Shown here: positions 21,416-59,076 of the stretch, one piece after another | Layout of the letters: every line of letters starts with the position of its first letter | Numbering within the stretch: position 1 is the stretch's first letter | Assembly: GCA_977862235.1 (NCBI GenBank) | Contig: OZ374564.1 | Location: forward strand, 2,542,001 to 2,606,000 | Reading direction: 5' to 3' | Length of the DNA: 64,000 bases | Source of the DNA: Dudresnaya verticillata | Taxonomy: Eukaryota | Notes under the pieces: model-generated | The model's database searches: none | The model's input: the letters and a program-made list of their open reading frames with translations, nothing else | What the model was told of the DNA's origin: nothing | Program-made: the position numbers and the translations under genes

Positions 21416-21425
21416 TTCGGCCTCA

Positions 21426-26166: not shown

Positions 26167-26337
26167 AGCTGTAATCTCGCCCTCACTGTGACAGCCTCAC
26201 TTCTTCTCGCTACACCTGATAGACAATCTGCGTCCCACTGTCGAGTCCTTCTCTAGCTCAACCACAATTTGTAGCAACAACACCAGAACAATCGCCAAGG
26301 TCACTCTCCTTGACGAACACAGTAAGTTTAAACTTAG

Positions 26338-29438: not shown

Positions 29439-29439
29439 T

Positions 29440-30875: not shown

Positions 30876-30877
30876 GG

Positions 30878-38384: not shown

Positions 38385-40093
38385 ATGTCAACTCACTCTC
38401 AAAGTAGTTCCCGTCGTGGTCAGAAGGCGGAGCAGACCCCATTGGTCCCCCCAGTTGAGGACCCGGAGTCTTTGCTCCACCCTCCGAGAACTCCTGGAGT
38501 AGAACAAGAGGAACCGCCTGGTCAAGCATCCACCAATCCCGTAACAGGTAAACCCTTAGCCGGTCCTTCGAAAGAAGTCGCAAGGTATCCCCCGCTACAT
38601 TCCAACCGTAACCATTGGGTCAATACTGATCTGATGCCCCGTCTGATCAACTGGCTACATGATGAGTTGACCCTTCGGTTACCTCAAACGGTTGAACCAC
38701 TAGTGGGACACTTTCTAGAGGAACAAGGTCCAAGGACACTCTTAGAGTTTGCCGCCACGGCTACTGACAAGTTAGTCCAGTCATGGACCACTCAGCCGGA
38801 CAGTAGTCCAATCTATGGGATGCTTACCAAAATGGTTCCCCCGTTGGTCGCTCAGTCTCTCGAGGCCTATGGGCAAGCAGCGGACCCTTCAACTGGACCA
38901 AAGTCTAAACCCACAGGGGAAACCAAAGTGGAAAATAAGGAGGATGATGTCGTCCCTCCTGGCATCGTTCTACCAACCGAAACTGGTGATATAAAAAGGG
39001 AACCCGAAGGGGGTTTGTCGGACTCCGAAGGTAGTAAGAGTAACCGACAAGGATCGAAGTCCAAGAATTCTAAAAAGAAGAAGAAGAAGGACAAACGAAA
39101 GAAAAATAAGAAGAAACATCACTCATCTGAGTCTGACTCATCGTCAGTTACCTCAGATGGTTCAAGTTCGGATGATTCATCCGATGATGACCGACGGCGC
39201 CGTCGCCGGTCGTCTAAACCTACAAAGGTCAGGAGGATTAAACCCCTTAACGACCTATTTACCCGAGTGGTTAGCTTTCAAAGTTACCGATTAGACAACC
39301 GCTCAAGGCTTTACTCTTCGAGAATCTCTCGGAAAGTAAATACCTACTATAAGAGGATGGCTATTCAGATGCCACCCTCTCGGTTTTCGGGTGTAGACCC
39401 GATTAACATCTTGGGTTTCCTAGCAAGGTTCAAGGATGCCTGTAACCACAACGACATCCATGAAGGAGCGGCCGTTTGGTTACTACAATATTTTATGGCA
39501 GGAACCGCAAGGGACAACCTTCAGGCCAGGCTACAGACAAGAACCAGTATGGTTGTGGACTCCGAAGATGAGGGAGATTTGTTGACAACGTACCCCGAAG
39601 TGGTTAATTACCTTTTGGAAACTCATGCCACCGATGAGGTTATTGCGCTAGCCTATGCTGACGTAATCTCGTTGAGACAAGCAGAAGGAAAAACGGAACG
39701 GGACTTCGCAGAGTTAGTAAGAGCCAGAGCTCGCCGTTGCGGGTCGGTATTTACGGAACACCGCCTCAAGGCGATCTTCGTTGATGGACTCCTCCCGAGT
39801 ATCCGTGCACCGGTTCGTAACCGGTTGGCGTCTTCAAAGAGTTTGTCCTATACGCAGATTACACAATATGCACAAGACCTTGGAGAAGCTCATAGGAGTA
39901 CACGTGGGACGACAAACCTAAAAGGTAAAAGGGGAGTAATTCCCGTCGCCGCGGTTAGCTTCGAGAAGCCACCGTCTCACTCCGTGAGTACGTCGACAGC
40001 TACCTCTGATGGTTTACCGGGCATGGAAGACATTCATGAAGAGGAGATTTTCCAACTCGGTGAAGACTTATCCAAGCAGTCTATGTCACCCCC
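38385..40093 (+). pseudogene. gag: gag of element D, 5' part (interrupted by the DNA transposon)
   Basis: VSFQSYRL...FSGVDPINILGFL...YPEVVNYLL capsid block. No knuckle before the insertion; the knuckle is found at ~59125. Confidence 0.92.
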
Positions 40094-40570
40094 AACACCC
40101 ATTTAAGCCATTCCAGAATATGACTTTGAAAACAGACTGGAGTCGAATAGCTATTTTATGGTATTATTGGAAAGGGAAGCGTGCCCTGAGTACGATGGTG
40201 AAATCCGATTGGCCAACGGACCATTTGTTCCAAAGTTATGGCGGTTTGCGTGATTTTAGACAAAATAATTCCGGGTTTTCCGAAATTTAATTTCTTTGCG
40301 TCGATTTGGCCCGGCCGGGCCACTCCGTGGTCCGGACTGGGCCAAATTGGTCCACCCGGTCCCCACCTGCCCCATGCGCTCGCCCCCCTCTCCCCGATGC
40401 CACGGCACGCCCCCCCCATGGCACACAATGCCCCGGTTGTACCGTGCCCCCCCGCGCACCGCACCACAGATGCGTGCGCGGCCCTGTTTCCGCAGCCCCT
40501 ACTCTGCTGCGCCACGCCTTCTCACCGCACCTACTGTACTGTCCTGTGCGCGTCCGTACGGGAATACAGA
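40094..40570 (+). repeat. Left TIR of the 19-kb transposon
   Basis: Reverse complement of 58592-59072 with only scattered mismatches. Confidence 0.95.
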
Positions 40571-40609
40571 CTGCCTCGTCGCCCGTTTCCCGCACCCGCC
40601 CCGCGAGGC

Positions 40610-41095
40610 TCATGACCAGGGACAGCAGGTGATCGACGGCGCCGGCACGTATTCCGCCGACACCCCCGCCTAGTTTAGCGCCCATGCAGCTCAAGGCGCA
40701 GAGCGGCTCAAGCTCGTTGCCGCCCTGGGCGCCCAGGCCTCCGGCAAGTAGACCGTGCTCAACAACCTCTTCGGCATCTCGTTTCAGGTCGCCCCGCGCT
40801 CCACCGACGCCACCCCGGGGACCACCGGCATCCTCTCTTCATTTTCCCCCGCCAACCCGCTTCAATCCAGTCGCCCTGGATGTCGAGGGCGCCGACTCCC
40901 GGCAGCGCGGCCGTGACAGCCGTGCCTTTCAGGCGAGGTGCGCTGGATTCGCGTCTGCAATTGCTGATGTCATTCTGCTCAACCTGTGGTATCATGACGT
41001 TGGTCGTTTTGACGCCGCAGGGTATGCGCTGTTGGATGGCATTTTCGCCGAAGCTGTCAAGAACGCTGAGCAGGACCCCGGGTCTTTCAAAACTT
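40610..41095 (+). pseudogene. SEY1: Captured fragment of an RHD3/SEY1 (atlastin-like) GTPase
   Basis: QVIDG...LVAALGAQASGK*TVLNNLFG (P-loop with a stop), then after a frameshift LDVEGADSRQRGRD...ADVILLNLWYHDVGR. Confidence 0.85.
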
Positions 41096-41161
41096 CAAGA
41101 TGACGTCGTGCTCCCGCAGCTCGAGTTGCTGCTACAGTCCAATGCAAAGGAGATGAGCAGG

Positions 41162-41620
41162 AGACGTCCTTCACTGTGAAGCTATTACCTTCACGGTTAA
41201 TAACCGTTTAACTCGCTGCGCTGTTCCATCTCAACGAACATTATCTGCTGTGGCAATACCTTCGGACAAGACTGGGTCAACACCACACACAAAGCTTTGT
41301 TTAATACCCTTTACATCCAAACCACCTTGATATCCAAACCCACTCACGCCTCTGATTCAGGATCTTCTACGGTCCACTCCAACGGGACCTCCCAGCCCAG
41401 CAACCCTAACACACCCCGAGCTCCCCTCATCACCCCTTCTCCAACCTGGCCAGCCCTCGCGATCATTTCACGTGCCCATCCCATGAGCTGGTTCCGGAGC
41501 CAAAAAGTGGTATCCAGCTCAGCCAGGGCAACTCCGCGCGCCTCGATGATTTCAGCGCGGAGCTCCCTGAGTTCTTCTACAAGCCTTTCGGGAGCTGTGT
41601 CGGAAGGTAGCATTTTGTCA
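41162..41620. repeat. Inner inverted repeat, left copy
   Basis: Reverse complement of ~56578-57037; more diverged than the TIRs. Confidence 0.9.
41344..41613 (-). CDS. 89-aa helical protein of unknown function, copy L
   Basis: Intact ORF of the same length as copy R, with many synonymous differences between the two. Confidence 0.7.
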   Translation of the reverse strand: MLPSDTAPERLVEELRELRAEIIEARGVALAELDTTFWLRNQLMGWAREMIARAGQVGEGVMRGARGVLGLLGWEVPLEWTVEDPESEA

Positions 41621-41785
41621 CCGTGCATCACCCGTGGGGTCCGCAGTGTCCTTCATATAGATCTCGACACCGATACATTGTCTGCACTGAGTATAGAAAA
41701 TACCAGCATGTATACATCGAAGACAGCCACTTTGGCTGCACAAAGTTTAACAACATCCACCTGCCCAATGTCTATCGTTTCGGAT

Positions 41786-42315
41786 TTATCCTGACTCATC
41801 AAAGAACGCCGTGGCATACAAGACGCTGATGTTATGTTTAGCTTGCTCGGCCCTCGCCCTCCTGACCTCCTCCGAACCTTCCATATTTTCCTTGGCATGA
41901 TGCCATGTGACTAATAAACGGCACATTCTCTCCAGGTCGCGAACGGGCGCGCTTGCCGTCCTAGTTGCCTCGAGTAGCACAGAATCTATGTCGTGAGCTG
42001 TTGCACCATAGAAACCGTCATCACAAACTTCATAATCTCGGTCCTGTACACGGCATCCAGCATATTGCAGTCATGCTCGTGTTGCGATAGAACATGGTTC
42101 AACTCGCTGTTTCGACTTCCATTCATGAGTGTTTCGCTCTCACGGACTTCCAAAGCGTCCATCACCCGCCGTGGAAACTGCAAATACTCACTCCGAAGCC
42201 TCCTCGAGCGATTGTTTAGTCTGCATTTCAGCTGCGCTCTGACGTGCTTGTGAAACTTTCCAAAAGCAGCTTGCATGTCCGCGGACGCGGGAGCTGCACC
42301 AAGGCCCGAAAACAT
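41786..42315 (-). pseudogene. Transposon-borne hypothetical protein, probably one ORF split by a frameshift (41986-42315 and 41786-41980)
   Basis: Adjacent helical, protein-like ORFs in different frames; no recognised motif. Confidence 0.4.
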
Positions 42316-42560
42316 TGTTGTGCTAGACCCGATAATGTAGAAGCTCTGCTTGCTCTGATGCGAGCTTGGCGTTAGCTGTGAGGGGATCTACTATGTTGGT
42401 AAGGGGTGAAGTATGCAGTAATGAAAATAGACGAGCCTCTCTTCACAATCTCGGCTCGAGCCGCGGAGTTCTTTGACGCTCCACTTGTGTTCGTACGGCA
42501 TGCATTTCAATAGACATCAATAAGGGGATAGATCTTACTTCGATCTGCAACGTGGGGTAT

Positions 42561-43452
42561 TTACACTACCTGTCCACGTTGTACGTTTACGCCGCCACGT
42601 GGCGTCGTTCGTGGGTTGTCGTTTTGCAAGCAGGCAAGAATGTGTAGTGCCTGAGGACCTAAGCAAACTGTTACCGGCTGTACATAACACGAAGATCTGG
42701 GGGCACATGGCAGACGTAATGAAGACACGACATGTGAGTAGGAGGGATTCCTGCTGTTCCAAATCGGAATACTAACCGGTCCGAAAAACCAATATGTGTC
42801 AAGCAGGGAATTTGTCCGCAGCTGAACCACAGCCAAAACGCCTTTACTACAGCTCTTACCATGGGTCACACTTTCCTTTACAATCGAATGTACTGTCACT
42901 GCTCAGCTTCTCTATTTCCTTCTTTCTGCGATTGAACTTCTGAACAGCACAGTAGTACTCGTTTCTCTCACGGTAGTTACTGAACTTCCTTTCCCCACGA
43001 CACCCAACCTCAAGCAGAATGGCTAAACTTGGATCTGCCAACAGCTTCTGGTTCTCTCGATCCTGAATTTCCTGCGTGAACCGTTTGAATGCCCCTGTAC
43101 ACTCCTTCTCCTGCTCGTATCGAGACAATGAGCACTCTGAAATCCTTCTCAAGAAGCGTTGGAAGACAGACCGATCGAAAGGTCTGAAACCGAGTTTGTC
43201 GTATCCGCGTACTGCTATTCCGCGAGTCCTCATCAAGCAGAGAACTGAGAACAATTGATGCTCTCCGATTCGACACGCCATTTCCTCAGTGCTCTCATCT
43301 TCTGTGCAGAGCATCTTGAGGTCGAATGAGGACAAGTCTTCAGAAAGCTCCAATTTGTCCAGCTGAAATCCGACAGTTCTGTTACACTCTGATGTATCTA
43401 GCGACCTGCCCTGGCTTCCGACTCGTTCGCTCATTGTCTCTCCAGTCTGCAT
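42561..43452 (-). pseudogene. Transposon-borne hypothetical protein (198-aa ORF 42856-43452, possibly continuing in 42561-42899)
   Basis: ATG-initiated, charged helical ORF oriented divergently from the methyltransferase gene; no recognised motif. Confidence 0.45.
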
Positions 43453-44363
43453 AACGAGTTATCCTTCTGTTTGTTTCGATATTGCCCGCGCACTGTGTGT
43501 GTGGACGCATTACCCCCAAGATTTAAGTGTTCAGTTGTCAACTATTTATTCCAGATGGTAGAGCGGCTTTTTTCGAAACTGTACAGATCCCAACATAGCC
43601 ACGTGGATTAAGGATATGGCCTAATCAAGGAAATGGGCGTGTCTGTAGCCACGTTTTGTTTCAGATTTGACTTTGTACAGGGCCTGTCGTGGATCGCTTC
43701 CGACGTGGGAAGACAGAATTTTGCCAATACCCTTAAACGCAGTGTCTATGCTATATACGCTATATATGCTATTGGATGATATCTCGAGATATCATGTAAT
43801 CAAAGTACCCTTTCCGCATATCTCAGTGGATAATAATGCCTCCCGCCCTGCTCAAAACAGCGTCACTGTGGCCTTTACGTGTTGTAACGTGGCGGAAAAG
43901 GCTGCATGATTTCTTACTCCACCTAAGAATTCAGGTGGCCCCTCATGAAGAGGAAAAGTGAAATCAGAACCTCTGGACGGTAGGTTTGTCCTGTCGTATG
44001 GTCTCCCGATTCTTAATCCTACACTTTGCGGACTGTACGGTAGTTTTCACTGATTAAAGCAGTACGAGTTGCACGAGGTGGTCAAACCGTTCTGGCACTA
44101 GACATGGGAATACTGAACGGGCATGTGCACTGCAGTATCAATATGCCATCCACTGACTCTGAAATGATTGCAGCCTGAGCCTCGACGACAACAAAGTTAA
44201 CAGAACGTTTCACGCCTATACGAGCATAAGCTCGTGTCCCGCAACGTTTTATCAAGACATTCAGCATCCTGCAATAAGGGCTGCAGAATTGCGGAACCCA
44301 CAGAACAGAACTGTGACAGACCTTCGAAACTCGCCGCCGCGTTCAACAGGGAGTTTGTACGAG

Positions 44364-47329
44364 ATGACGAGAAAGGGAAAAGGACAAGGGGTTGATAGCT
44401 CCCCTGCAGAAGCAGAAATAGCTTCCTCCATTAGTAGAGGGAAGGCGTTGTTCCCTGATGTCATGGATGGCTCGGTCAACATTCGAATCGACCCCAGAGC
44501 ATGTATTCCATTGAACAGATAAGACCTGTTTTGCGATCTGGTGTGGAACGACTAAAAGCGCGTTTTCACCTACGTTCTTCTCAAGACAGGGAGGGAGTTG
44601 TTGGCTACGTCGCTGGGTCCGACTCCCCTATCGTTGTAGAACTAAACGGAGCACTAAGGGGTTTGGTTGTAGCATATTTCAAGAAGTCGAAAACAGAAGG
44701 AGGAAAGTTGTGTTCCGACGAGGATGCGTCGGTAAAGGCGAATAGTCGTGCCAAGTGGTATGGTATTGTGGATGGTGTACATCGACATAGTGTCATATCA
44801 TAATTAATGGAGGAAGTTCCCACAGTGTGGCAATCGTTTGCGTGGCCAGTCACCGTACTGAAAGGCGGTCACAGCGTCTGTGAACTACGACAGCTTGCCC
44901 GTCACCAGAACGAGAAACATGCACAGGGTTATTTCATCGAAACTACGTTTTACGATCTTATCCACGGCTTGCGACAGGAGGCTGACCGGTTGCAATCCAA
45001 GACAGGGAAGCAACCCAGCGCCCCCAGAATTGCTGAGGCTTATGATGGCTCGAAGCTGTATCGCAACAACACCATTAAACAGACTGCTCAGACTGTTATG
45101 CGTTTGGATCAGAAGGTTATCGATGCAATAGGACTCATCACAAATGAGGAAAGGCCGGACTTGGCTGCCAGGATAAGCTGCGACAGGGAAGGCACGTCGA
45201 TGGACAAAGATGGGGCAATGCGAAGCGTCGACTGTAGAGTGTACAGGAAATTCATCCATATATCGTCTCTAAAGTCTGCAGCATCATACATGAAAGCAAG
45301 CAAGATGTCGGACGGGGTGGAAGTCCAGATAGCTACATTGTACAGACTCCGTGAAATGCACCGACTTCAGAACTTCCGGCCTGTGGCAAGCTATCAGACC
45401 CTGGAGCAGTTTCAGAAAGCGAAGGAGGCAATGAAGGAAGCGCGTAAATTCGAACGATTGTTGGAGACCCAAACTTGGCCGGAAGGTATGCAGGTCATTC
45501 GGGAAAACCTTTTGCACTCCACGAAGTTGGACCATGAGGTACGCGCGAACTTCGGCAACGATCAGGATGTTATAAAGCCGTTGCTTGATGCATATCGAAG
45601 GGAATGCCCTCAGGAAGCTCCACGGAAATAAAAGAAGTTTAGATACCAGTTCCGCACACAGGTCGAGTCCCAGGGGGAATCCAATCCCGCAACTGGCCAG
45701 AAGGAGAGCCATTCGGTTTCAATGTCTAAGATTGGCTCCGATAGCGTGGTTAATCGGAGCAATGCCGAGGAAAAGGATGGAATGGACGGGATGGCACTTG
45801 AAGAAGAGCAGGAAAATCTCGACATAACTACCGGCGTCGTCAATCAGACACTGCATATGACCACACCGGTCAAGGTGCATGGCAATGAAGATGGCGAGAA
45901 TGGTGAGACCGGTACAGCAGAACAGGTTGATCAGCGTGGAGAGAATGTTTCCAGGCCCTCTATTCGCTCAGCGGCATCTACTCGACAATCGGAGAGATTA
46001 AACACATCGTCTATTGAGGGAGACCGTGATGTTATCTCCAAATGCGGAATAAGCACCCATCAGATGCTGTGGCAAGAGTATGACCAGTCAGTCCGAAACG
46101 AGTCCAGTCCTCTATTTGACCTTGTCCTTGCAGACCCACCGTACGGGATACCGAAGGGCATGTCAGACGCTGGTACTGCGTATGATAACAGATTTACTGA
46201 AGAGGACGTCAGGCGGTTGTGTGAGTTCTGCGGACGAGTAGTGAAGGAGGGTGGGTGGGTCTTCATCTTTTGCAGTTTTATGAACTTCCCCACATTTAGA
46301 AGAGCTCTTACGGAGAAGAGCTTCGATTGCCCGCAGTACCCATTTCTGATATGCAAGGACACAGCTACGATGCAGATAAGTCGCAGGAAGGGATTACAAA
46401 ATGGTGCTGAGATTGCAGTATTTGGCAGGCGAAAAGGAATATCGAAGGCATCATTCTCCCCCGACTTGTCAAGTCCGTACCACTACGTTCCATGTGGCGA
46501 GAGAAGAAAGTTCGCTGTCATGACATCTGTTCCCGCGGCAAGGGATAAAATTCTGAAGCCTGGAACGACTAGAGCTCCGCTTCTCACAGAAGAAAAGAAC
46601 CCGGACATGCTCACTGAAGTCCTTACCACGTTCTGCCCTGACGGAGGTTCTGTTCTGGACACACACGCCGGAACGATGACTACAGGAATTGCGTGTCTCA
46701 GATTGGATCGGAAGTGCACTCTTGTGGAAAGCAAAGCTGAGACGTTCAGATTAGCCACAGAAAGACTACAACGCCTCGCCAACGAGAAACAAAGTTGCGT
46801 ATCTGGGGATTTACTTCCAAATAAGCGTTCAACGGATCTTTCGGAGACGCAAGAAAAATCGAAGAAGGCGCGTCAAGCTGAGTGCGGAGTGGCATCGCAC
46901 ACTAAGGATGTCACAGAAGAGGGGAAGGATGACAAACAGGGTTACAGTGTCGTGCAAGACTCAGTAGCAGTGAAAGATAAAATCTTGTCTCAGGACTCTT
47001 CCTTCAAGCGCGGTGGGGCGAAACTGAAAGGGGACGACAGAGTGTGGCTCAGATACGGGCAGCAGAAAGTTGGGGAGGCGACAATTCAGCCGAATGAATA
47101 CGGAACTGGGGTTAAGGAGAAAATACACGGTCACTCGTTGCAGCAGTTCAGCAAACCTGGTGAACATCTCGTGGCGGTGTTCTCATTCAATCTGTTAGAG
47201 GCATTTGCTGACAAGCCATACAATTACACCTTCAAGGGCCCGGAGGAACAACCGGCCCTGCTTAGAGATTTAACTGCATTCTTTGCGTGGGATCTCAAAG
47301 AGATGGAACCTTTCGAACCCGAGTCGTAG
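44364..47329 (+). pseudogene. ParB/Srx-like domain fused to a beta-class amino-DNA methyltransferase (N6-A or N4-C), ~990 aa, disrupted
   Basis: IRPVLRSGVERL...SPIVV...WYGIVDGVHR (ParB-like, 44771-44785); FDLVLADPPYG (DPPY at 46133-46144), EEKNPDML, VLDTHAGTMTTGIACLRLDRKCTLVE (from 46658). ORFs 44501, 44807 and 45722 share one frame, separated by TAA at 44801 and 45629; one frameshift near 44515. Confidence 0.88.
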
Positions 47330-47428
47330 ACATCTTGAAACACCTGCACTTTTGCTGCGTAATAAACTCACATTTTTCGCCAGTCAAGAGTGCGCTTCGT
47401 TCGGCAGGCAGCTCTCGTTTCCATACCC

Positions 47429-47752
47429 ATGGCGTCATCGCGAGACAATGGACATGAGGCCGGCACTGCAATGGACGTGGATACGGAAGCACTTCTCTCC
47501 GAGGTACGGGCTCTTCGAATGGAGGTAGACGCGCTACGAACTCGAGTGGAAAGTGCTCTGCAGAGAATGAGCGAGATAACCACCAACGTCATGGACCGCT
47601 TGTCGAGGGTTGTGGTTCAGGCAGTGCACATTGCGAGAGCTGCGAGAAGAAGACTGCAAACCATCGAACGGCGTCTTGGGATACAATTCCTGGGTGAAGA
47701 CGACCCTGAGTTGGATTCGGATATTGAGAACCAACTTCAACACAACCTCTGA
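47429..47752 (+). CDS. Small coiled-coil protein (107 aa)
   Basis: MASSRDNG...LLSEVRALRMEVDALRTRVESAL heptad pattern; acidic tail. Confidence 0.55.
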   Translation: MASSRDNGHEAGTAMDVDTEALLSEVRALRMEVDALRTRVESALQRMSEITTNVMDRLSRVVVQAVHIARAARRRLQTIERRLGIQFLGEDDPELDSDIENQLQHNL

Positions 47753-47773
47753 AAAGCTCGACCAACACCCGAA

Positions 47774-48046
47774 ATGCCGTTGCCCCTTAACCCAACCGTT
47801 GGCGACGCACAGGTCGAGGTCATACGACTACGTCAACAAGTCGCCCATCTGCGGAACGTAGTCCGTAACCTGGAGGGCGAAGTGCAAAGCGCATCCAATT
47901 TCGTTCGCTACCTCATTCAAGAATTCGGAAGAAGGATAATAAGTGCGCTTCGTCATGCTCGGCGAAATGTACAGGACTTGCACCGTTCTGTACGTGCACT
48001 TAGGGAGGAAGTAGAGCGCGATGTAGAAGACCCACTCTCGGAATAG
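47774..48046 (+). CDS. Small coiled-coil protein (90 aa)
   Basis: VEVIRLRQQVAHLRNVVRNLEGEV heptads and acidic tail; starts 21 nt after the previous stop. Confidence 0.55.
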   Translation: MPLPLNPTVGDAQVEVIRLRQQVAHLRNVVRNLEGEVQSASNFVRYLIQEFGRRIISALRHARRNVQDLHRSVRALREEVERDVEDPLSE

Positions 48047-48391
48047 GCTTCGTGCAATTGTTGTAAACGATCTGATTTGATTGTCCATACCTGTTGCGAT
48101 GACAACCTTCGCAATGCCGTTTTCGGATCCGCTCGAGCGCACACGCTTACCCACTGAGACATCCACATTGAGCAGACGGGAGAGAATATTACCCGCATGG
48201 GTTTCTTTGTCGCCCGCCATTTCGCATCACTTCTTGACCTCTGCGAGAATCTGCCCCTCGCCATTAACAAGCGAGTCCAGACCGACCGACACGCGAAGCA
48301 GATGCCATGAGGCCTCATCCTCATGTTAACATGAGAAAATGCTTTCGCAGCTCCGCGACGCTCAAGCCGCTGTAGTTTGACAGCCGGGCGA

Positions 48392-49237
48392 CTACTTCCT
48401 GGGTCTCACGGAAGGGGTGTTCCAACACAAGATAGACCTCCACACGTTTGTGGGTACTGTTTCAAGAAGCCGTTTTGAAATGTCACTATCGCGCTTCTCT
48501 TCGTCAAGTTCATCTGCCTTGTTGGCTTCAACCTTTCCATTTTGCCGCTCTGCTATTTCTTTCGTTAGCTCTGCAGATGTCAAAACTCGGAGAACTTCTT
48601 CAAAAGTCGGCCTAGCATCTTGGTCTTGAGCCCAACATCGCTCAATTAGTTCCCGTAGCGTTGGCGGGACGTTGTCACTCTCGTGAAACTCAGGTCTGCC
48701 ACCCTCCGATACACAAAACATTAGCTGAATGGGTTTCATCTTTGGAAACGTAAAACGACTGGTGTACATTTCATACAGTACAATACCAAATGAGTATACG
48801 TCAGCAGCTGGAGTGTAGGGCTTCCTTTGCATTACTTCGGGGGCCATTGTGTAGGGTGTGCCGACGACTCCTGCTCCTCGTCCGTCCTGCGAGCTGTTTA
48901 TGCCAGATGCTTCATGCACGAACTGGCTGCCAAGTCCAAAGTCACATATGACGCAATGAGTAATCGTGCGGTTGATTAGAATATTGCTTGCCTTTAAATC
49001 ACGGTGAAGGATTGGTGGAGACGAAGCATGAAGGTAAAACATGCCCCGAGCCACGCCGCACTCCATTTCCAGAGACTGCTCCGATGAGAACTTCCGAGGA
49101 TTCGGTCCATGCAAGAAGTTTGCAACGGAGCCTCCAGAGTACAACTCCGCGATGATGCACACGACTGGCTCGAAGGTACTTGATACGATCAGGGAGGTGG
49201 GTACTGCAGTTAAATGTTGGTCAAACATGTTTATCAA
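48392..49237 (-). pseudogene. Captured fragment of a TKL-group protein kinase (C-lobe only)
   Basis: ARGMFYLH, HRDLKASN, DFG, GTPYTMAPE, DVYSFG, CWAQDQDARPTF; no Gly-loop or VAIK upstream. Confidence 0.9.
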
Positions 49238-49359
49238 CTCCTGGAACCTCAGCTGAAAGTGTACTGGCAGGTTCCAGTGCTTCCAGAACTCTGCTGTCGC
49301 ACCGAACGCGGTATTTTAGACCTTGTTTATGGTGAGCCACTTGATCCAGCTCGAGTCAT

Positions 49360-49700
49360 CTTGAAAAACGCGCCATCGAAAAGTCTGCTTAGCCTGAACG
49401 ACAGTTGGAAACTTTCACCAGCAATTCGCTCGACGAACATCAGCCCCACCGCGGACGGCGTGGAAGCAAACTCGGAGTACTCCTTGAGCAGCCGCTCGCA
49501 TTTCAGGAGCAGATCATTCGCGTCGAGCAATGTGCGCAGCGCAGACGTCCTAGCAGCAGCCTCGCGGCGCTGCACGAGGGTAGTGTGAAGGTCGCCGATC
49601 GGCTCGTCCAGCAAGCCGAGCAGCGCGACCAAGTCGCGGCGGAGCGCTTCCAGCGAGACTGCGGCCGCGTCGGCAAGCGGCTCCGAGGCGGCGATAGCCG
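49360..49700 (-). pseudogene. COG2: Captured fragment resembling the N-terminal region of COG2 (conserved oligomeric Golgi subunit 2)
   Basis: LVQRREAAARTSALRTLLDANDLLLKCERLLK...VERIAGESFQLSF resembles the recalled COG2 pattern (QR..AA...L..LLD.....K.E.L...ERIA.E...L.F); from memory only. Confidence 0.55.
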
Positions 49701-50309
49701 GGCCGAACGAGGTGAAGGTGTTGAAGCATGTAGACCGGCCCGAACAGCATGAAGGCGAGGAATAGTGCGAGGAATAGTACAGGAATCAGGGTATCCAACA
49801 CGCATGCAGCGGCGGTGGTGGAGCAGAGAGACGCGTTGAGTACTTCTGTGAGGCAGTAGCTAATTCGTTTCTCGTGCGTGGGAGCTATCGACGAATATGG
49901 ATATTTATTATAGCTCCTCGGCGACGCCCAGATCGAAAAGCTATTTTCTTAGGTTTCACGATTCCGCTTCCTGAATAGCTATGTAGCTAACGAGATTACC
50001 TCCAGGCAAATATCTACTTTTTTAGGTTTTTCATTCTGACTAAATGGGGAGCTATGTAGCTCCGGCGGAGTCGCAAATCAACAACCTATAAAAATAGATG
50101 TTTCATTTGGCGCATCTCAACATCTATTGGCCGATATCTATATTCGTGTATAGCTTTTCCAGATCTGCGTCCTGGTTTGCTACTGATCTCAATGTGTTAC
50201 ACAGGGCCTGGCCCACCTCTTCGTACTACCATCTCTTGCTTTGCACGTCCCGGGACGTGCAAAGGGAGAGGCCTCTCCGCCGCCGCAACCCCCCGTTCCC
50301 CCGTTCAGG

Positions 50310-51270
50310 AGATTGACTCACCCAAGCCCTTGAAGCATCACACTAGCTTTATCAACTATGTCTGCTTCTCCCCGGGCAGCTCCAAGCTCGCCATTGCGTC
50401 CTCGGATAGGTCCATTAGCATTGTCGACGTCGCCGAGGCGGACGTTATCGCCACTTTCAAGCGGCACACTGCGTCTGTCACTGGCCGGTGTTGGGCGGAT
50501 GACGGCTCCAAACTGCTGTACTCGTCGAATGACAAAACCACCCGCATGTGAAGCATTCCAGATGGCGAGTGCCTATCCACTGTCACCTTCGGCTCTAATG
50601 TCATGGACATTCATGTGGGCTGCACGATTGCCCGCAACACTGGCGAAGTAGTGTTCGCCTCGCTGCATTCTGAGATATTTATCACTGGAGCCGATGGAGA
50701 GCGCGAGACCGTCATGCGAGCGAGAGGGTTAGACGGGTGTTGCAGCGACGGGGCGTGGGTATGTCAACGCGGTAGGGGCGCGAGGGGCGGGCTTACCGTC
50801 TTCAAGGGCTTCGCTTCGGACTTTCCCGAGGGCTTGACAGCGGTTCTCTTCGCGCTGGTCATGGTGCGGGTGCGGAGGTGGGCGCGGTGACGGGCCGGGA
50901 GGAGTGGGGAGGGGTGTGTGGGAAGTGTGAAGGAAGGGGAAGGCGTGGTCGAGGTGCGGTGGGGGTGGTGGGGTTGGCGCGGTGGGGGGCTGGGGAGGAC
51001 TTGGGCGAGTGTTAAGAAGGGGCGGAGGGGCGAGCGGAAGCTCGCCGATGCCGACACTCTGCTTTGCGTGGCCGCGCGGCCACGCAAAGCAGAGTGTCGG
51101 CATTGCCGACGTGGCAGATAGGTTCTACTCGTCAGACTACTCGGGGCTCATGTTTGCTTGGACCTGCTCTTCAACGGCAAGGGCCCAAACCACTGCTGTT
51201 TGTTCTATTCCTGCTAATGACCAAATTGTCGCGAATGTTGGACAGGACGTAAAGGTTTTCATCAGGATGG
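50310..51270 (+). pseudogene. AIP1: Captured WD40 fragment, AIP1/WDR1-like, interrupted at ~50718-51075
   Basis: HHTSFINYVCFSP...HTASVTGRCWADDGSKLLYSSNDKT..*...VMDIHVGC...ETVMR, then RGHAKQSVGI...YSSDYSGLMFAW. Confidence 0.7.
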
Positions 51271-51465
51271 GGTGTCTCACGGTGAGGGCAGGATGCGAGT
51301 TCTTGCATGTCACTTCGTATCTATAGCAGCGCATGAACCGGTCTCAGACTCCTGGGCGCTACTACGTGAGGCTCAAACTCAACTCCTAAACATATTTATT
51401 CAATATCAATCGTCCCATGGCATCATTTCGAGCAACCGATACCCGCTCGCAAGGCTTTGTGGTCC

Positions 51466-53814
51466 CTACGCGATATTTTCCGATCGCATGTCCAGGGCTT
51501 CCCTAATTTTCCGTTGCGCAGTCACCGGGATCCCACCATTTGTTAAACGAGCGAACTCGACCAGTACGGAGTTTTGAGGGACTTTATCTCTCCATGGAAT
51601 GGTTTGGTCGACACCTTTGGTGACTTTTGCTTTTTTGTACCTCCCTGTAAACGTATTGCCTCTGCCCGTACTCCTCTGGTACCACTCCACCTCCAGAGTT
51701 GTTATCCTCCCCGTTTGGTTAGAATTCCAGTCCGTGATTTGGCCAAGCCAGAATGGACAATTTTCAGTACAGTCATCTCCCAGAACCGCTACGAAGCTGT
51801 TCTTAGTATAAGGTAGGTCCTGCCTCACAACTTGCTCTTCTCCTGAATCGGCTTTGGAATCGGAATCGGAATCACCAGCGGGAACGATGCCACTAGGCTT
51901 GTAAGAACCGTCTAATTCAAAGACATCCGGCAATGACCAGTGCAAGGGGTCATCGCGGTCCGAATAAACTCTATCTCGGAGTGCCAGCAGTTTCTGCAAC
52001 TTTGTGTGGTCGTTGATTCTTGTTTCCTCGGAACGCAGGCGATTAGTAATTTTGTGCTCGTCGGGTGGGGAGCGACACGGTGTAGGCGGTGTTTTGCTTA
52101 AGTCTGGCGGGAATAACAAGAATCCTCCCTGTCCGTCTTTTGTTTGTAGTGGTTTCCAGGATTCCTTGCTCCATATCTTGAATTCGCAGCGTGTTTTAAA
52201 CTTAGTAGGATGTGAGGCCAAAGGGCCTTCCGTTGTAAAGCGAAAGTACCGATACTCGGAAGTGGCCTCCGTTCGTCCGAGACACTCCTCCATGTTGCAC
52301 AACCCGGAGAAATTAGCAACATGGCGTATTTCTGTAACGCGCGGCTGGGGTGTGTAGGAATGTCGCAATTTGTGCATCAGATCGTCCATAGTAATTGCAG
52401 CTCTTACCCGCAGTCTCCTTGCTGTGCAGCTAAATACCTGGTCGATATCAGCATGTGTGTGCCCAATAGGTAGGAACGATGCATGCACTTCGCAAAACAC
52501 ACCCATGGCAACGAGAAACTCTAAGTACCCGAATAGATACTTGTTCTTGTTTTCCCTCGTGCAGTTGTCGGCCTGGACATACAAAGTTCCCTTGAGTGGA
52601 ATTCTGTCCCTACGGGACATTAGCATTCTGTGCAACGCCTCAATGACGTGATTGGCACCGGTCTCAAATTCACTAGTCATTGTGAATAGGTGGAGGTTCG
52701 CAGTTTGACCGTGTTCCAGGACACCAACAACTTTCGCCTTCAAGTCGTGCCCGCGAGTATCCTTCCGCTTGACATGGAAGTGGGGAAGTCCGAACGCGGA
52801 CTGATCTGCACCATCGATTATTGCAGAGCAGTAGCTCTTCGGGTACATAGATGCCATTTCGCATTTCTTGCGATACTCTGTCCTCTCCGTCATGATCGCT
52901 TTGACATGTCGTGAACGACGCTCACGAAGCGTTTCCGTGCCAGGAAGATCTGTAGTAGCCTTTGCCAGCAAGTCTTTGATATGTTCGCATTCAGGGCATT
53001 TCGCAAACCTATGCGTGCGCCGTACCTTGATTTGTGGGCAGTATCGAGTCCAGATGCTGTAAAAGTAGCTTTGAGATGGCGTCTCTCGCCTCGGATACAG
53101 AGCGTCATGTTCTTTCTTAAACGTGTTGTAAACTGCGAGTTTCTGATAGAACGGAAGATGAATCTCCTGCTTGTCGGATTGCGAGTCCCCAGAGACTTCC
53201 GCAAGGCGCTCCAGAAAAGAGACGATGACTTCCAGTTGCTCAGTAGAAGAAGAAGTGACAGCGAGCCCTCTACCCTTCCTTTCACGACTGAGATTGGTCC
53301 CCTTCACAACGGACTGAAGGTCTCTGGAAAAGCCGAACGCCCTCTCCAGAAATGTGTAGCATACAGGACGACTGCTAAAAAAATACATGTTGGAGTTGTG
53401 CTCAAGAAGCCCTGCGAGGTAGCTTTTTCTCTCGGTCCCGTTCTGCGCCATGAATTTGCGCGACTCCGCTATGACATAAACAGGCTCGATAGTGGCGAAG
53501 CACTGCTTCGTCTTGCAGCAGTAGATACCGGACATGTCCTGACTCTCCAACGTTTCCAATACCCTCCGCCTTTTCGCCTGCATTATTGACCCTGAAAGGG
53601 CTCCTTCCGGGCGGTTGACATACCTGTATTGGCGTCTGCCCTTATCCCGCGAGGCTTGCAGTCTATCATTGTTAGCCTCTTTATCAACATCCCTGGTCTC
53701 CGTTGGGGTCCAGTCTGGTGACTCGTCAGCGTCCGGTGTGTGATTATCGTCAGGACGCACACTATCATCATTGCTATCATTTTTTGGTGACTCGTCCCTC
53801 CTTGTGGTACACAA
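51466..53814 (-). CDS. DDD transposase core, Sola-like, with a C-terminal BAH/Tudor-like segment
   Basis: CC...C...VC Cys cluster, IHLP, FAKCPEC...H, IIDGADQ, LYVQADNCTRENKN, FLPIGHTHADIDQVFS; tail FWLGQI...LEVEWY. Confidence 0.85.
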   Translation of the reverse strand: MCTTRRDESPKNDSNDDSVRPDDNHTPDADESPDWTPTETRDVDKEANNDRLQASRDKGRRQYRYVNRPEGALSGSIMQAKRRRVLETLESQDMSGIYCCKTKQCFATIEPVYVIAESRKFMAQNGTERKSYLAGLLEHNSNMYFFSSRPVCYTFLERAFGFSRDLQSVVKGTNLSRERKGRGLAVTSSSTEQLEVIVSFLERLAEVSGDSQSDKQEIHLPFYQKLAVYNTFKKEHDALYPRRETPSQSYFYSIWTRYCPQIKVRRTHRFAKCPECEHIKDLLAKATTDLPGTETLRERRSRHVKAIMTERTEYRKKCEMASMYPKSYCSAIIDGADQSAFGLPHFHVKRKDTRGHDLKAKVVGVLEHGQTANLHLFTMTSEFETGANHVIEALHRMLMSRRDRIPLKGTLYVQADNCTRENKNKYLFGYLEFLVAMGVFCEVHASFLPIGHTHADIDQVFSCTARRLRVRAAITMDDLMHKLRHSYTPQPRVTEIRHVANFSGLCNMEECLGRTEATSEYRYFRFTTEGPLASHPTKFKTRCEFKIWSKESWKPLQTKDGQGGFLLFPPDLSKTPPTPCRSPPDEHKITNRLRSEETRINDHTKLQKLLALRDRVYSDRDDPLHWSLPDVFELDGSYKPSGIVPAGDSDSDSKADSGEEQVVRQDLPYTKNSFVAVLGDDCTENCPFWLGQITDWNSNQTGRITTLEVEWYQRSTGRGNTFTGRYKKAKVTKGVDQTIPWRDKVPQNSVLVEFARLTNGGIPVTAQRKIREALDMRSENIA

Positions 53815-54766
53815 TTCAACTTCATCCGAGGCGTTGCGACTCCCTTTTTGCCATTATTCGCAGTATCCAATGCGTACGGACGACGGCACATGGGAGCTTG
53901 TCGCTCAGGAGTGTAGACGAGTAAGGGCTGTTCCGGGACAGGCGAAGGCGTTCTTTCCTTGGTTTGCTCGATACCTTCACCAGGAAGTGCCTCAGCCACT
54001 GAGTCTGTACTTGTTCTATTCTCCTGTAACGACCGTTTCGGAGATTCAGAACGGGGAGTAGGTATTTTAGTTCCCATCCCTATCGTTTTAGCAAGGCGCT
54101 GCAGTAGACCAGGCCTCGCTTTCCGTGATGGAAGCACCCTTCGAGCAACACGGCCATCATTTGCCGTATTACTTGTCAGTTTCGACTTGACAGGTATATT
54201 CCCTTGCGCACCCCTGTAGTTTCCTCTTCCGTTTGCTTTCTCTTCCCATTTTTTATCTGCTCCCTGTCCCAAACATGAATTCCAACATTGAGTCCAGAAA
54301 GAGTGTTGGGTGGGGGCTCCAGTCCTGGGTACTTGTATTTGTAACGACTTTGAAGATGGTCTTTGTGAACTTTGAAATTGTATATGACTACCCATGTCTC
54401 ACCCTTACCTTGCAACGCCTTCAGCGAACGACCATGCATCTTCACCTTGAAAGCTCCCGTGTCATCCGCTTCTTCGGGTGCTGACGGCCTCATTGGCTCA
54501 GCCGTGCCTACCTCCTTTCCATCCATCATAAGTACGACACTCCTCGCTTGTACATGTTGCCTATCGCGCTGTTTGACGGAATCAGAACCGGGAGACTTGA
54601 CGGTAACCATTATTTCGCGCTTCTCTTCGTGTTCTTCCTGCATGTGCTCGTCGTTACGCAGATTGCAAGGCGTAGGATGGCACCCCGCAGTCGTTGGAGC
54701 GTTTCTTATGTCCGCAGTGACAACTTTAGCCATGCGTCTCTGCGCATTCTCCCGATCGCGACCCAT
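53815..54766 (-). pseudogene. Probable N-terminal part of the transposase gene (two -1 frameshifts), containing the domain shared with the methyltransferase
   Basis: Overlapping ORFs 54176-55060, 53583-54395 and 51466-53814 step by -1 each; ATG at 54766 (MGRDRE). Confidence 0.6.
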
Positions 54767-56577
54767 CTCGCTTTTGTGATTGTGGGGTGAGATATCGATG
54801 TTCCACTGTTCGTATCTCTTCCTTGCCAGTGGAATGCGTGCACAGAAGAGTTGCCGGTGAGGGGCCTTCCGGAGTGGAATGCAGTAGGTTTCGATATCTC
54901 CAAGGCGTAAAAGAACGGTATTGGGTAGGGTGTACCTGGTTCGCGAACCAAGCGAGGGAGTGGTGTCGCTGCAGATGCAGTGTAGCCAGACTGAGAATAT
55001 GGGTACCCTTCGGGATACGCAGTCCCTGGAACTTACGGTTACGTGAAGAAAGAGAAGCAAGCAAGCAATTCAGTACGATTCCGGAATCGGACTCACTGGT
55101 GAGTTGGCAATCGGGATAGCGTGTGGAGATGATCTTGAAACCAGTGGTGGAGGCGTTTTCTGCGATTTAGATCGTGATCGAGGCGTGAGATTTTAGTAGA
55201 CTAGCCACTCTGGATCCAAAGATTCAGCCATGTCATTCATTGGGGTGCACAGCAGTGATGAATGACTAATAGGCCACCGTCTATGCCAATCAGAACCTGT
55301 GTCAACCCTGGACATGTTCCTTTTGCTGCAAGTGCAACACTTTCATACACGAGTATGGTCTTGAAGAGTATCTGTATTTGCGTGGAACCAGCTTATGGGA
55401 TGGTTGGAGGTCCCGGCGGAGTGGACGGTGGTAAGTTCTGAATCAGAGGGGTGAGTGGGATTTGGGTGTAATGGGCAATAAGGGCGACATTCCGTGTGGC
55501 TTTGAGCAAGATTTGTTTCTACGTACTGGCTGTGCAAATACGTCGCAGTAGGAATCTTCTGACTTGAGGGAGATTATAAGTCAGTAGTTGTGGAGTTGAC
55601 TGGTAAAGGTCCTACGGTTAACATATACATGACGCCCGCCGCAGTTCAAATATGCAGCGGAGCACTCCGCTGCCCCTCCTGGCGTCGGTCTCACGTTATT
55701 GCGTGGCCCGCGCGCTGGAGCTCATGATAGCCCCGCCAACTTTACTAGACGTGAGGCGCAAGCATCACGATCGTGACGATACGAGCTGGACGCAAAGGTC
55801 ATTCGGCCCCATGGCGTGCAAGGCAAGGTGATCAGAAAGGGGCATTTGTGACTTCACTAAACATGTTTATTGTGCACAATAACAAAGCCTCTTAATTGAT
55901 AACGCGAGAACCATAATATGTATTCCGAATGCCAGCGCCGAGTCTGTGAGGAGAGTAATGTTGGGTTGGTGGTCCTCGATGTTGCACCTCATCTTATCTC
56001 GACCAACTTTATTCAGACCCATTCAAGCATCACGACGCGAGCATGATGCAAGGACCATTCAGCCGCGGCTGCGCGCGTGGTGTACAAGGAATTGTCGCAA
56101 AACAACAGAGGATATTTGACCATTGCCGTGTGGGTCACATCCTGGTAAGGACGAGGCCAGTATCGTGCATACGAGCCGGAAACCTCAGCACATTCAGCAC
56201 CGTACCTGCAGCATGGAAGCACAATGGCAGGGGACGCGGCAATATCAAGATGGGCAGCTGCCAAATGTCGCCAGCTTCGGAAGAATGTCCCGCCAGCACG
56301 TCCTGCTGACCGAGTACCGTCGATTGTCTATGCAACGGGTTTTGAGCATGCCGAATGGTCTCAATCCTGACGCTTCATAGGAGCAGTGTCGTGGGATTTC
56401 GGACGCCATTCTTAACCACGATACCAGTGTGTAGGATGTGAGCCCCCCGTCAAGGTTGAATGAGGTGATCAAACACCGCATTTCTTTCCTCCTGAAAACG
56501 CCTGCGAAGTTGACTCGAGTCGAGGGTTGTTGATCAATAGGTCAGCGTGGAGACACGGACCCGAACAGTGAAGCAAA

Positions 56578-57037
56578 GTGACGAAATGTTATCTTCCGAC
56601 ACAGCTCCAGAACGCCTAGTACAAGAACTTAGGGCACTCCGCGGTGAAGTCATCGAGACGCGCGGAGTTGCCCTGGCCGAGCTGGATACAACGTTCTGGC
56701 TCCGAGACCAGCTCATGGGATGGGCACGCGATATGATGGCGAGAGCTGGGCAGGTTGGGGAGGGGGTGATGAGGGGAGCACGGGATGTGTTAGGGATGCT
56801 AGGCTGGACGGTCCCGTTGGATTGGACCGTAGAAGATCCTGAATCAGAGGCGTGAGTGGGTTTGGATATCAAGGTGGTTTGGATGTAAAGGGTATTAAAC
56901 AAAGCTTTGTGTGTGGTGTTGAACCCGTCTTGTCCGAAGGTATTGCCACAGCAGATAATGTTCGTTGAGATGGAACAGCGCAGCAAGTTAAACGGTTATT
57001 AACCGTGAAGCTAATAGCTTCACAGTGAAGGACGTCT
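56578..57037. repeat. Inner inverted repeat, right copy
   Basis: Reverse complement of 41162-41620. Confidence 0.9.
56586..56855 (+). CDS. 89-aa helical protein of unknown function, copy R
   Basis: MLSSDTAPERLVQELRALRGEVIETRGVALAELDTTFWLRDQLMGW...WTVEDPESEA; intact paralogue of 41344-41613. Confidence 0.7.
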   Translation: MLSSDTAPERLVQELRALRGEVIETRGVALAELDTTFWLRDQLMGWARDMMARAGQVGEGVMRGARDVLGMLGWTVPLDWTVEDPESEA

Positions 57038-58591: not shown

Positions 58592-59072
58592 TCTGTATGC
58601 GTTCCCGTACGGACGCGCACAGGACAGTACAGTAGGTGCGGTGAGAAGGCGTGGCCCGGCAGAGTAGGGGCTGCGGAAACAGGGCCGCGCACGCATCTGC
58701 GGTGCGGTGCGCGGGGGGGGCACGGTACAATCGGGGCATTGTGTGCCATGGGGGGGCGTGCCGTGGCATCAGGGAGAGGGGGGCGAGTGCATGGGGCAGG
58801 TGGGGACCGGGTGGACCAATTTGGCCCAGTCCGGACCACGGAGTGGCCCGGCCGGGCCAAATCGACGCAAAGAAATTAAATTTCGGAAAACCCTGAATTA
58901 TTTTGTCTAAAATCACGCAAACCGCCATAACTTTGGAACAAATGGTCCGTTGGCCAATCGGATTTCACCATCGTACTCAGGGCACACTTCCCTTTCCAAC
59001 GATACCATAAAATAGCTATTCGACTCCAGTCTGTTTTCAAAGTCATATTCTGGAATGGCTTAAATGGGTGTT
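58592..59072 (-). repeat. Right TIR of the 19-kb transposon
   Basis: Ends ...GGCTTAAATGGGTGTT, followed by CCCC. Confidence 0.95.
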
Positions 59073-59076
59073 CCCC

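Follow-up and report, generated by a model that had tools for sequence, protein, structure and literature searches.

A decayed accessory gene of a giant Sola DNA transposon was identified in the analyzed window, a stretch of 64,000 nucleotides whose host organism is likely a red alga. The gene encodes a ParB-fold domain fused to a beta-class methyltransferase. Our preferred reading, held tentatively, is that the intact protein is predicted to load onto its own element and to mark it with N6-methyladenine (m6A), which would aid activity or transposition. The ParB-fold and helical domains would place the protein on the element's own DNA, the methyltransferase domain would write m6A there, and the adenine mark would help the element to stay active or to transpose. 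We infer that the protein targets its own element and that the element benefits; the protein would then be the transposon's own DNA-marking enzyme, as the earlier note on this DNA had suggested from the sequence alone.

Structure of the host element

The element occupies positions 40094-59072, starts and ends with AAC...GTT and is bounded by terminal inverted repeats (TIRs) of 472 bp. Its ends, repeats and further cargo are the following.

40090..40093, no strand: left target-site duplication CCCC (4 bp)
40094..40564, plus strand: left TIR, starting with AACAC; matches the right arm in 460 of 472 aligned columns
40633..41103, plus strand: captured, frameshifted RHD3/Sey1 GTPase fragment (PF05879 E=1.9e-14; Sey1 5ca8 E=1e-7)
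41162..41643, plus strand: left arm of an inner inverted repeat (482 bp, 91%), with a minus-strand ORF of ~90 codons inside
47429-47752 and 47774-48046, plus strand: two coiled-coil-like short ORFs (coiled-coil matches only, under the cut-off)
48392..49315, minus strand: protein kinase fragment, captured host gene (PF07714 E=2e-38)
within 48392..49315, minus strand: COG2-like short piece (PF12022 E=2.9e-5, under the cut-off)
50060..50551, plus strand: WD40-repeat fragment, captured host gene (PF00400 E=2.8e-9)
56556..57037, minus strand: right arm of the inner inverted repeat, pairing with 41162..41643
58602..59072, minus strand: right TIR, ending with GTGTT
59073..59076, no strand: right target-site duplication CCCC (4 bp)

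Sola transposons are described in the accessible text of PMC10741241 as having 4-bp target duplications and TIRs of 11-1124 bp, with some elements longer than 15 kb; CCCC on both sides, the 472-bp TIR and a length of 18,979 bp were found here. The duplication rests on one insertion, sited in a run of C. The insertion site is a Gypsy gag gene: gag sequence precedes the left end of the element, and the zinc knuckle of that gag follows the right end (zf-CCHC E=9.7e-4, a sub-threshold match). The inner inverted repeat was also considered as the pair of element ends and was rejected, as it is not accompanied by a clean target duplication. The outer pair was chosen because of its clean duplication and because the AAC...GTT ends match those of Sola1-1_Ec32; the inner repeat could be a nested element. 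A placement inside a DNA transposon had been proposed earlier without boundaries, and the TIRs and the CCCC duplication bear it out. A profile search to the right of the inner repeat gave no match to a continuation of the RHD3 fragment, and an Rfam search of the sequence gave no match. The short ORFs had looked like paralogues by eye, an idea that was dropped when tblastn gave no cross-match (of the four queries, one had been translated in an incorrect frame).

The methyltransferase gene and its breaks

The gene lies within the element and is composed as follows.

44364..47329, plus strand: whole ParB-methyltransferase gene, ~988 codons, with a frameshift and two TAA stops
44440..45640, plus strand: ParB/Srx-fold domain and then a helical region (limits approximate), with DGVHR at 44771-44785
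45640..46020, plus strand: acidic linker, unconserved in the alignment with relatives
46030..46790, plus strand: beta-class (permuted) N6A/N4C methyltransferase domain (PF01555 and fold matches)
47036..47308, plus strand: ~95-aa beta-rich C-terminal domain, shared with the transposase N-terminus

Read as ORFs, the gene starts with the ATG at 44364 and terminates with the stop at 47327-47329. The loss of one base at ~44517-44519 leads from frame 1, which ends in DPRACIPLNR and a stop, to frame 2 (IRPVLRSG); tblastn with relatives places the frame change at 44492-44519. Premature in-frame TAA codons are found at 44801-44803 and 45629-45631. Relatives of 879-1010 aa with one intact ORF align along residues 1-780 (7 of 10 matches cover 92-99% of this stretch, with 29-42% identity), so the pieces are a single gene and not chance ORFs, and since these relatives read uninterrupted across the break sites, the frameshift and the stops are not introns. 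The joining of four ORF pieces into one gene, as first proposed, therefore stands, and this copy is dead as had been supposed. Decay after insertion fits the number of stops, for which the TIR divergence predicts 1.4 and 2 were observed; the single indel fits less well with an expectation of ~6, an estimate derived from only 2 gap columns. Of the anatomy given previously, the motifs are in place, while the ~95-aa C-terminal domain had been missed.

The ParB-fold and methyltransferase domains

The N-terminal fold was judged on a structural model of the relative P0007 (49-50% identical; pLDDT mostly >90 over residues 30-440), and Foldseek ranks 1-10 for this model were all ParB/Noc proteins. The structural matches include pNOB8 ParB (Z 8.9, rmsd 4.1, 214 aligned) and PadC (Z 7.5, rmsd 2.4, 97 aligned), and also KorB, Srx, SerK and SbnI. 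A phage ParB was matched at E=2e-4, the best Foldseek match in the PDB had E=2e-3, and the Pfam ParB profile matched none of 53 relatives or 11 members of A1. These moderate scores point to a ParB/Srx core fold, in line with the earlier assignment. DGxxR-type motifs bind nucleotides in the ParB/Srx superfamily; DGVHR is present in this copy and DG.HR in 20 of 56 full-length relatives. Matches to DGQHR/DndB profiles on the relative P0153 were weak.

In the catalytic domain, DPPY (46133-46144) precedes the SAM-binding DTHAG (46658-46672), an EEKNP motif is also present, and PF01555 is matched at E=1.8e-13 (51.4 bits vs a cut-off of 26.7). The closest solved fold is CcrM (Z 23.7, rmsd 3.0, 226 aligned; Foldseek E=8e-15), followed by the m6A enzymes M.BceJIV (Z 22.8), M.MboIIA (21.8) and M1.HpyAVI (21.8). 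These four resemble the domain in fold and motif order (Z 21.8-23.7) but are bacterial, are devoid of a ParB part and share only 18-21% identity with it. The N4C enzymes N4CMT (Z 18.7) and M.PvuII (18.6) score lower and the METTL3/MTA1 fold lower still (Z 14-15). By motif order, profile and predicted fold, the domain is a beta-class amino-methyltransferase, as had been claimed. DPPY and the nearest folds favor m6A as the predicted product, and we infer N6-adenine rather than cytosine as the target and DNA as the substrate, even though the beta-class fold is described as having switched repeatedly between m6A and m4C (PMC8885841).

Canonical ParB CTPases, which bind CTP, are loaded as clamps onto recurring parS-like palindromes. 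A binding site for the ParB-fold part was sought within the element. Neither a parS-like array nor a recurring palindrome was found there (no exact 11-mer occurs more than 3 times, and no 16-mer more than 4 times when 3 mismatches are allowed). The element has more perfect palindromes than its shuffled versions (23 vs 4.65), but all are different and they are also common outside of it, with 24 in the first 40 kb. For these reasons, neither a binding array nor a self-binding site is claimed for the element.

The transposase and a domain shared with the methyltransferase

The methyltransferase gene is faced, on the opposite strand, by the transposase.

51466..53853, minus strand: DDD transposase (DUF7869, Sola type), open frame of 795 codons (PF25273 E=7.7e-50)
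54176..54766, minus strand: detached transposase N-terminal piece, holding the ~95-aa shared domain at 54251-54541

DUF7869 is taken here as the marker of Sola transposases. The search yielded 94 transposase relatives, and the three catalytic-type aspartates are conserved in 74/74, 72/74 and 74/74 transposases. P0038 and P0039 match both pieces, and in intact relatives the N-terminal piece is joined to the catalytic frame, from which two frameshifts were deduced for the transposase.

The ~95-aa domain is C-terminal in 18 of 56 methyltransferases and N-terminal in 7 of 94 transposases, and the two sets of copies align at 97% probability in HHalign (E=1e-10). No family could be assigned to it from Pfam, PDB sequences (best E=0.21) or the Atlas (no usable match); the fold-match lists of the whole-protein model were filled by the methyltransferase part. 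It may resemble the SH3-like accessory domains of CACTA elements. Complex prediction for the methyltransferase and transposase copies of the domain, run with no alignments, returned a score of 0.00.

Loss of the catalytic motif among relatives

The copy in the window clusters with P0002, P0003, P0004 and P0133 (support 0.99), and DPPY and DGxHR are present in all five. Judging from its motif, this DPPY clade is presumed to be catalytic. The canonical [DNS]PP[YFW] is absent in 37 of 56 full-length relatives and was lost clade by clade, with EPPx, ALPS and DPFQ variants, while the long frames are open and the SAM motif is mostly kept; catalysis thus appears to be dispensable in much of the family. 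This observation lends weight to a doubtful rival, in which the protein acts chiefly as a scaffold or reader that binds DNA, a helper akin to TnpA or VANC; its methylase fold would recognize DNA, SAM or a modified base, and catalysis would be secondary even in members with DPPY. The EPPx-clade members P0009, P0010 and P0132 are still paired with transposases, the protein has a domain in common with the transposase, and DIRS1 retrotransposons are described as bearing inactive adenine-methylase domains (PMC4738411). However, 19 of 56 relatives, on distant branches and only 28-46% identical, keep the canonical motif, 13 of them together with DGxHR, and a DPPY motif kept for so long is not easily accounted for unless the protein is catalytic.

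Elements of both readings are combined in a more far-reaching scenario, which we regard as rather speculative. An old red-algal Sola lineage would employ a ParB clamp that loads a bacterial-type m6A writer and is coupled to the transposase via the shared domain, the resulting adenine mark in seaweed genomes would lie outside host control, and several sub-lineages would later have become catalysis-free readers or anti-silencing scaffolds.

Comparison with known systems

The novelty of the ParB-methyltransferase combination had been flagged for checking, and the combination turned out to be already described. Sola1-1_Ec32 of Ectocarpus carries a ParB plus N4/N6-methylase accessory gene, and self-marking by the element's own methylase was proposed for it (PMC12477816). 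Both are giant Sola elements (21.5 kb vs 19.0 kb here) with AAC...GTT ends, a 4-bp duplication and long TIRs (282 vs 472 bp here), and in both a gene of ~1000-1100 aa for a ParB-like protein with an amino-methylase, likened here by its description, lies on the strand opposite the transposase. They differ in that Sola1-1_Ec32 is from a brown alga and the present element likely from a red alga, with a broken copy. The accessible part of the published account contains neither the domain shared with the transposase nor co-divergence nor catalytically degenerate relatives.

Plavaka accessory genes of Bostrychia and other red algae offer a second comparison (bioRxiv 10.1101/2025.02.11.637652). According to the accessible text, PAG2 combines PF01555 with SET and PAG3 combines ParB with a 2OG oxygenase; both move between transposon families and were proposed to modify their own DNA. 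They likewise place a PF01555 methylase and a ParB-like protein on red-algal giant DNA transposons, but in separate genes with other partners, whereas a single protein is found here, and their carriers are EnSpm/Plavaka elements with palindrome arrays rather than DUF7869/Sola. A SET domain was matched in none of 53 relatives or 11 members of A1, and a 2OG oxygenase was found in 0 of 53 relatives; in the present protein a methylase follows the ParB-fold part instead. Supplemental Table 6 of the same preprint may list such Sola elements too.

In the chlorophyte-type Dam with a ParB-type HTH and in phage ParB-methylase loci, a ParB-related domain likewise accompanies a prokaryotic or phage adenine methylase, in algae and fungi, but chlorophyte-type Dam is an unpermuted group-2 (DpnM-like) enzyme and not a permuted beta-class one (PMC4738411). 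The permuted clades in the accessible text of that review include no red-algal ParB fusion. The ParB plus methylase layout in Sola is therefore in print, as are red-algal transposons with PF01555 genes, which limits the surprise. What is likely added here is the red-algal Sola lineage, the co-divergence with the transposase, the shared domain and the motif loss.

Bdelloid N4CMT is likewise a bacterial beta-class PF01555 enzyme with a targeting domain in a eukaryote and has the same fold, but it is a host gene with SPPY and a chromodomain that writes m4C for the silencing of transposons (PMC8885841), in contrast to the DPPY- and ParB-bearing transposon cargo described here. Together with the shift to RNA described for several eukaryotic recruits of such enzymes (PMC4738411) and the lack of a self-binding array in the element, this example gives some credit to an unlikely alternative, namely that an active enzyme has broad targets in host chromatin or competing elements, or that its product is m4C or its substrate RNA. 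Yet the motif is DPPY and not SPPY, DNA m6A enzymes have the most similar folds, the ParB-fold fusion points to DNA, and a gene that one type of element has retained across deep divergence should be useful to its carrier.

No tests of the proposed self-marking in algal transposons were found in the literature searched. The methyltransferase family makes self-marking testable, as intact DPPY proteins of ~900-1000 aa exist, naturally catalytically dead clades are built-in controls, and Asparagopsis is a sequenced seaweed with 66 PF01555 genes. Should such an enzyme prove active, red-algal genomes would receive m6A or m4C from it, and it would exemplify a transposon that controls its own chromatin, something VANDAL achieves by a different route.

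Probable linkage to the transposon family

Linkage between methyltransferase and transposase relatives was deduced from equal lengths of their source contigs and not from the DNA. Exact matches of length and source between 41 methyltransferase and 123 transposase records numbered 15, of which 14 are physically possible; the remaining one is physically impossible and hence due to chance. In 600 shifted controls the matches averaged 0.18 and never exceeded 2; the excess over the controls agrees with the earlier proposal that a transposon family carries the gene. A transposase record was matched for 14 of 21 methyltransferase contigs of at least 5.9 kb, and of the 20 clusters of methyltransferase relatives, 8 have a related transposase as partner. 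Across nine pairs the distances correlate (Mantel Spearman rho 0.85, p=5e-5), a value that could be inflated by shared host ancestry, and the linked transposases occupy four distinct regions of the transposase tree. Indirectly, these records indicate that the relatives adjoin related transposases and diverged with them. The intact relatives, the pairing and the matching distances argue that the gene is family cargo, neither a contaminant nor a stray capture.

It is thus very improbable, and largely refuted, that a host gene or neutral passenger was caught by a single element, like the adjoining RHD3, kinase and WD40 fragments. The element demonstrably captures pieces of host genes and only one copy from this genome was examined, but the gene is whole rather than a fragment, its relatives pair and co-diverge with a transposase that has a domain in common with them, and the gene table of Asparagopsis contains broken multi-copy members (the table, listing 8 of the 66 PF01555 rows, held no transposase with a RENKN or GHTH motif). 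That the contig contains wrongly joined DNA from a bacterium or phage is a practically negligible explanation: the domains are of prokaryotic type and phage methylases match the catalytic domain, but these matches extend over no more than 25% of the protein, with ~27% identity, low-sensitivity pattern scans found no relatives in IMG/VR (0/11 pattern matches) or GTDB genomes (0/8), the GC content of 0.49-0.50 equals that of the flanks, and the gene is enclosed by TIRs and a target duplication, the whole element being inserted in a Gypsy gag. Neither outcome named beforehand as refuting, a contaminant or an unlinked host gene, has occurred, nor has the lack of an amino-methyltransferase match. 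A scan of viral contigs with the transposase pattern retrieved no relatives, and the metagenome scan recovered one relative (L001) among 72 pattern matches, on a 3-kb contig without neighbors.

An interrupted ParB-methyltransferase gene

The four reading-frame pieces at 44364-47329 (+) form a single gene of about 988 codons, in line with the ~990-aa gene proposed in an earlier note. The gene is broken three times, by a one-base loss at about 44517-44519 (previously placed at about 44515) and by in-frame TAA codons at 44801 and 45629, and the window copy is dead, as that note had supposed. A search with residues 1-780 yielded 10 relatives (7996 candidates scored), seven of which are single frames of 879-1010 aa with 92-99% coverage and 29-42% identity; the relatives are uninterrupted across all three break sites. 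A profile search gave 331 proteins with E <=1e-30, of which the best 150 were taken as relatives, and 56 of the 158 sequences thus collected cover the N-terminal and methylase parts to more than 70% each (full-length relatives).

The last gene piece matched PF01555 with 51.4 bits (cut-off 26.7), and its motif order, DPPY followed by DTHAG, is that of the beta class. The structure model of 45989-47326 (pLDDT 83.6) matched CcrM with Z 23.7 and rmsd 3.0 (226 aligned), which bears out the earlier assignment to beta-class amino-methyltransferases. The Pfam ParB profile did not match the N-terminus of the window gene or of the scanned relatives. The N-terminal fold was modelled from the sequence of the intact relative P0007, 49-50% identical to the window protein (residues 30-440, pLDDT mostly >90). 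Foldseek placed ParB/Noc proteins at ranks 1-10, none reaching E 0.001, and VIA scored pNOB8 ParB at Z 8.9 and PadC at 7.5, followed at lower values by KorB, sulfiredoxin, SerK and SbnI. Phage ParB proteins matched the N-terminus at E 2e-4, and an Atlas search agreed with the ParB-type assignment. The predicted ParB/Srx fold, already suspected from sequence motifs, is thus consistent across methods at moderate scores. A well-modelled, beta-rich domain of ~95 aa follows 3' of the methylase domain and matched no family in Pfam, PDB sequences or the Atlas. Both named domains are of bacterial or phage type; low-sensitivity pattern scans of prokaryotic and viral sequences contained no donor candidate and no relative matching over the whole protein, and phage proteins matched the catalytic domain only (~27% identity).

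The transposon carrying the gene

The gene is enclosed by two nested inverted-repeat pairs.

Features of the element
40094-40564 and 58602-59072: outer inverted repeat (TIRs), 460 of 472 columns identical; starts AACAC, ends GTGTT
41162-41643 and 56556-57037: inner inverted repeat, 91% identity; no clean duplication
40633-41103: RHD3/Sey1 host-gene fragment
48392-49315: protein kinase host-gene fragment with COG2-like piece
50060-50551: WD40 host-gene fragment
51466-53853: DUF7869 transposase frame, 795 codons, facing the methylase gene

The outer pair, flanked on both sides by CCCC, is taken to bound an element of 18,979 bp, whose insertion has separated the zinc knuckle from the rest of a Gypsy gag. 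Together with the DUF7869 transposase, these features substantiate the proposed location inside a eukaryotic DNA transposon. Three aspartate positions are nearly invariant among 74 aligned transposases of at least 690 aa, window copy included. With its 4-bp duplication, its long TIRs and a transposase of DDD type, the element fits Sola transposons (PMC10741241). The inner pair possibly arose by duplication within the element or belongs to a nested one; it is more diverged than the outer TIRs (91% versus 97.5%), carries a ~90-codon ORF per arm and has a third, 60-bp remnant at 55406-55465. The RHD3/Sey1, kinase and WD40 fragments indicate Pack-type capture of host genes by a Sola-type transposon. 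Further ORFs of 90-200 codons at 41989-42387 and 42856-43458 (-) and at 47429-48046, with no family above cut-off, are possibly extra cargo, for example a PAG1-like gene. TIR divergence (10 substitutions) predicts 1.4 stops in the gene under post-insertion decay, and 2 were observed; for indels the fit is poorer (~6 expected from 2 TIR gap columns, 1 observed). No repeated palindrome array was found within the element. Its perfect palindromes at 51048-51103 (56 bp), 50239-50264 (26 bp) and 43776-43795 (20 bp) all differ, and the last lies 570 bp 5' of the methylase gene.

Linkage of methylase and transposase

Linkage was tested indirectly, by pairing 41 methylase and 123 transposase records on contigs of the same source and identical size in bp (short fragments and duplicate sizes excluded). 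This yielded 15 pairs, compared with 0.18 on average and never more than 2 when sizes were shifted in 600 ways; 14 of the contigs are long enough for both genes and one (4334 bp) is too short and represents a chance match. Among methylase contigs of at least 5.9 kb, 14 of 21 were matched, and the matches derive from 8 of 20 methylase clusters looked up. Methylase and transposase identity matrices agreed for nine pairs (the eight clusters and the window; Spearman 0.85, Mantel p=5e-5), to which common host ancestry may contribute. The linked transposases occupy four separate parts of the transposase tree. That the gene is cargo of a transposon family, as first proposed from this single copy, is well supported by this indirect test. 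On one matched contig at most 684 bp remain besides both genes, so the 4 kb separating them in the window are probably later cargo. Among the relatives listed, the ~95-aa domain is C-terminal in 18/56 full-length methylases and N-terminal in 7/94 transposases. A window copy also lies at 54251-54541, detached upstream of the transposase frame, so a frameshift has probably broken this gene as well.

Catalytic motifs and possible function

Among the relatives listed, [DNS]PP[YFW] is kept in only 19 and DG.HR in 20 of the 56 full-length proteins; both are kept in 13, including the window copy and its four nearest relatives. EPPx, ALPS or DPFQ replace the catalytic motif in whole clades. On this distribution, the window clade is probably catalytic and much of the family is not.

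Most plausibly, an intact protein would load on element DNA via its ParB-fold and helical parts and methylate adenines there, which would favour element expression or transposition; we infer binding, catalysis, target and benefit alike, and favour this model tentatively. A narrower version, in which the enzyme is active, writes on its own element and is coupled to the transposase, is doubtful. Three EPPx proteins are still paired with transposases, and a non-catalytic binding or reader role, the main alternative, is conceivable if rather unlikely. Broader activity, m4C or RNA activity is slightly less probable still; M.BceJIV, M.MboIIA and M1.HpyAVI also matched the methylase model, and N4C enzymes and METTL3-like proteins ranked lower. 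A mere passenger gene is improbable beside the repeated pairing with transposases, and contaminant DNA can practically be dismissed, as the element's GC equals that of its flanks and the gene lies within TIRs that split the Gypsy gag.

Known systems and red-algal relatives

The earlier note had considered the ParB and methylase combination in a transposon possibly new. This gene layout is already published: in Sola1-1_Ec32 of Ectocarpus (21.5 kb, AACCG-CGGTT ends, TIR of 282 bp, 4-bp duplication), a gene whose 1104-aa product joins a ParB-like part to an N4/N6 methylase lies opposite to the transposase, and the authors of that study proposed self-modification (PMC12477816). The accessory genes of red-algal elements, Plavaka among them, include PAG2 (PF01555 and SET) and PAG3 (ParB and oxygenase) (bioRxiv 10.1101/2025.02.11.637652), whereas the window protein is of neither type; no SET domain occurred in 53 scanned of 147 newly listed relatives. 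Methylase-bearing Mariner elements in viruses (PMC3627910) and enlarged EnSpm elements in Chondrus (PMC6431247) were reported earlier. The literature searched yielded no report of a domain common to methylase and transposase, nor of co-divergence with the transposase, degenerate clades or an activity test of such a methylase. The red-algal Sola family may already be listed in Bostrychia Table 6 or the Ectocarpus FASTA supplements.

The relatives P0005 and P0006 are, by eye, near-identical to gene models of Asparagopsis taxiformis, for which 66 PF01555 genes are reported; the counts for three further red algae are 6, 5 and 4 (PMC12115072). An enlarged group of 45 probable DNA methylases is reported for Delisea (bioRxiv 10.64898/2026.03.31.715562). 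These resemblances make a florideophyte red alga the likely host of the element. P0104, a 43% identical transposase labelled as coming from a Bacteroidota MAG, lies on a 1951-bp contig, probably an algal sequence that was binned with a bacterium.

Surroundings in the window

Nested Ty3/Gypsy LTR retrotransposons occupy 6807-20103, 21037-26716 and 37466-63640 (LTR pairs 97-99% identical), two of them with C-terminal chromodomains. A fold-back of ~6.5 kb at 26944-33455 has arms at 26944-29439 and 30879-33455 (81% identity) and a third, partial arm copy at 34569-35450. An element of 1 kb, which has long inverted arms (86%), lies beside short tandem-like repeats (3451-4510 and 4659-5098).
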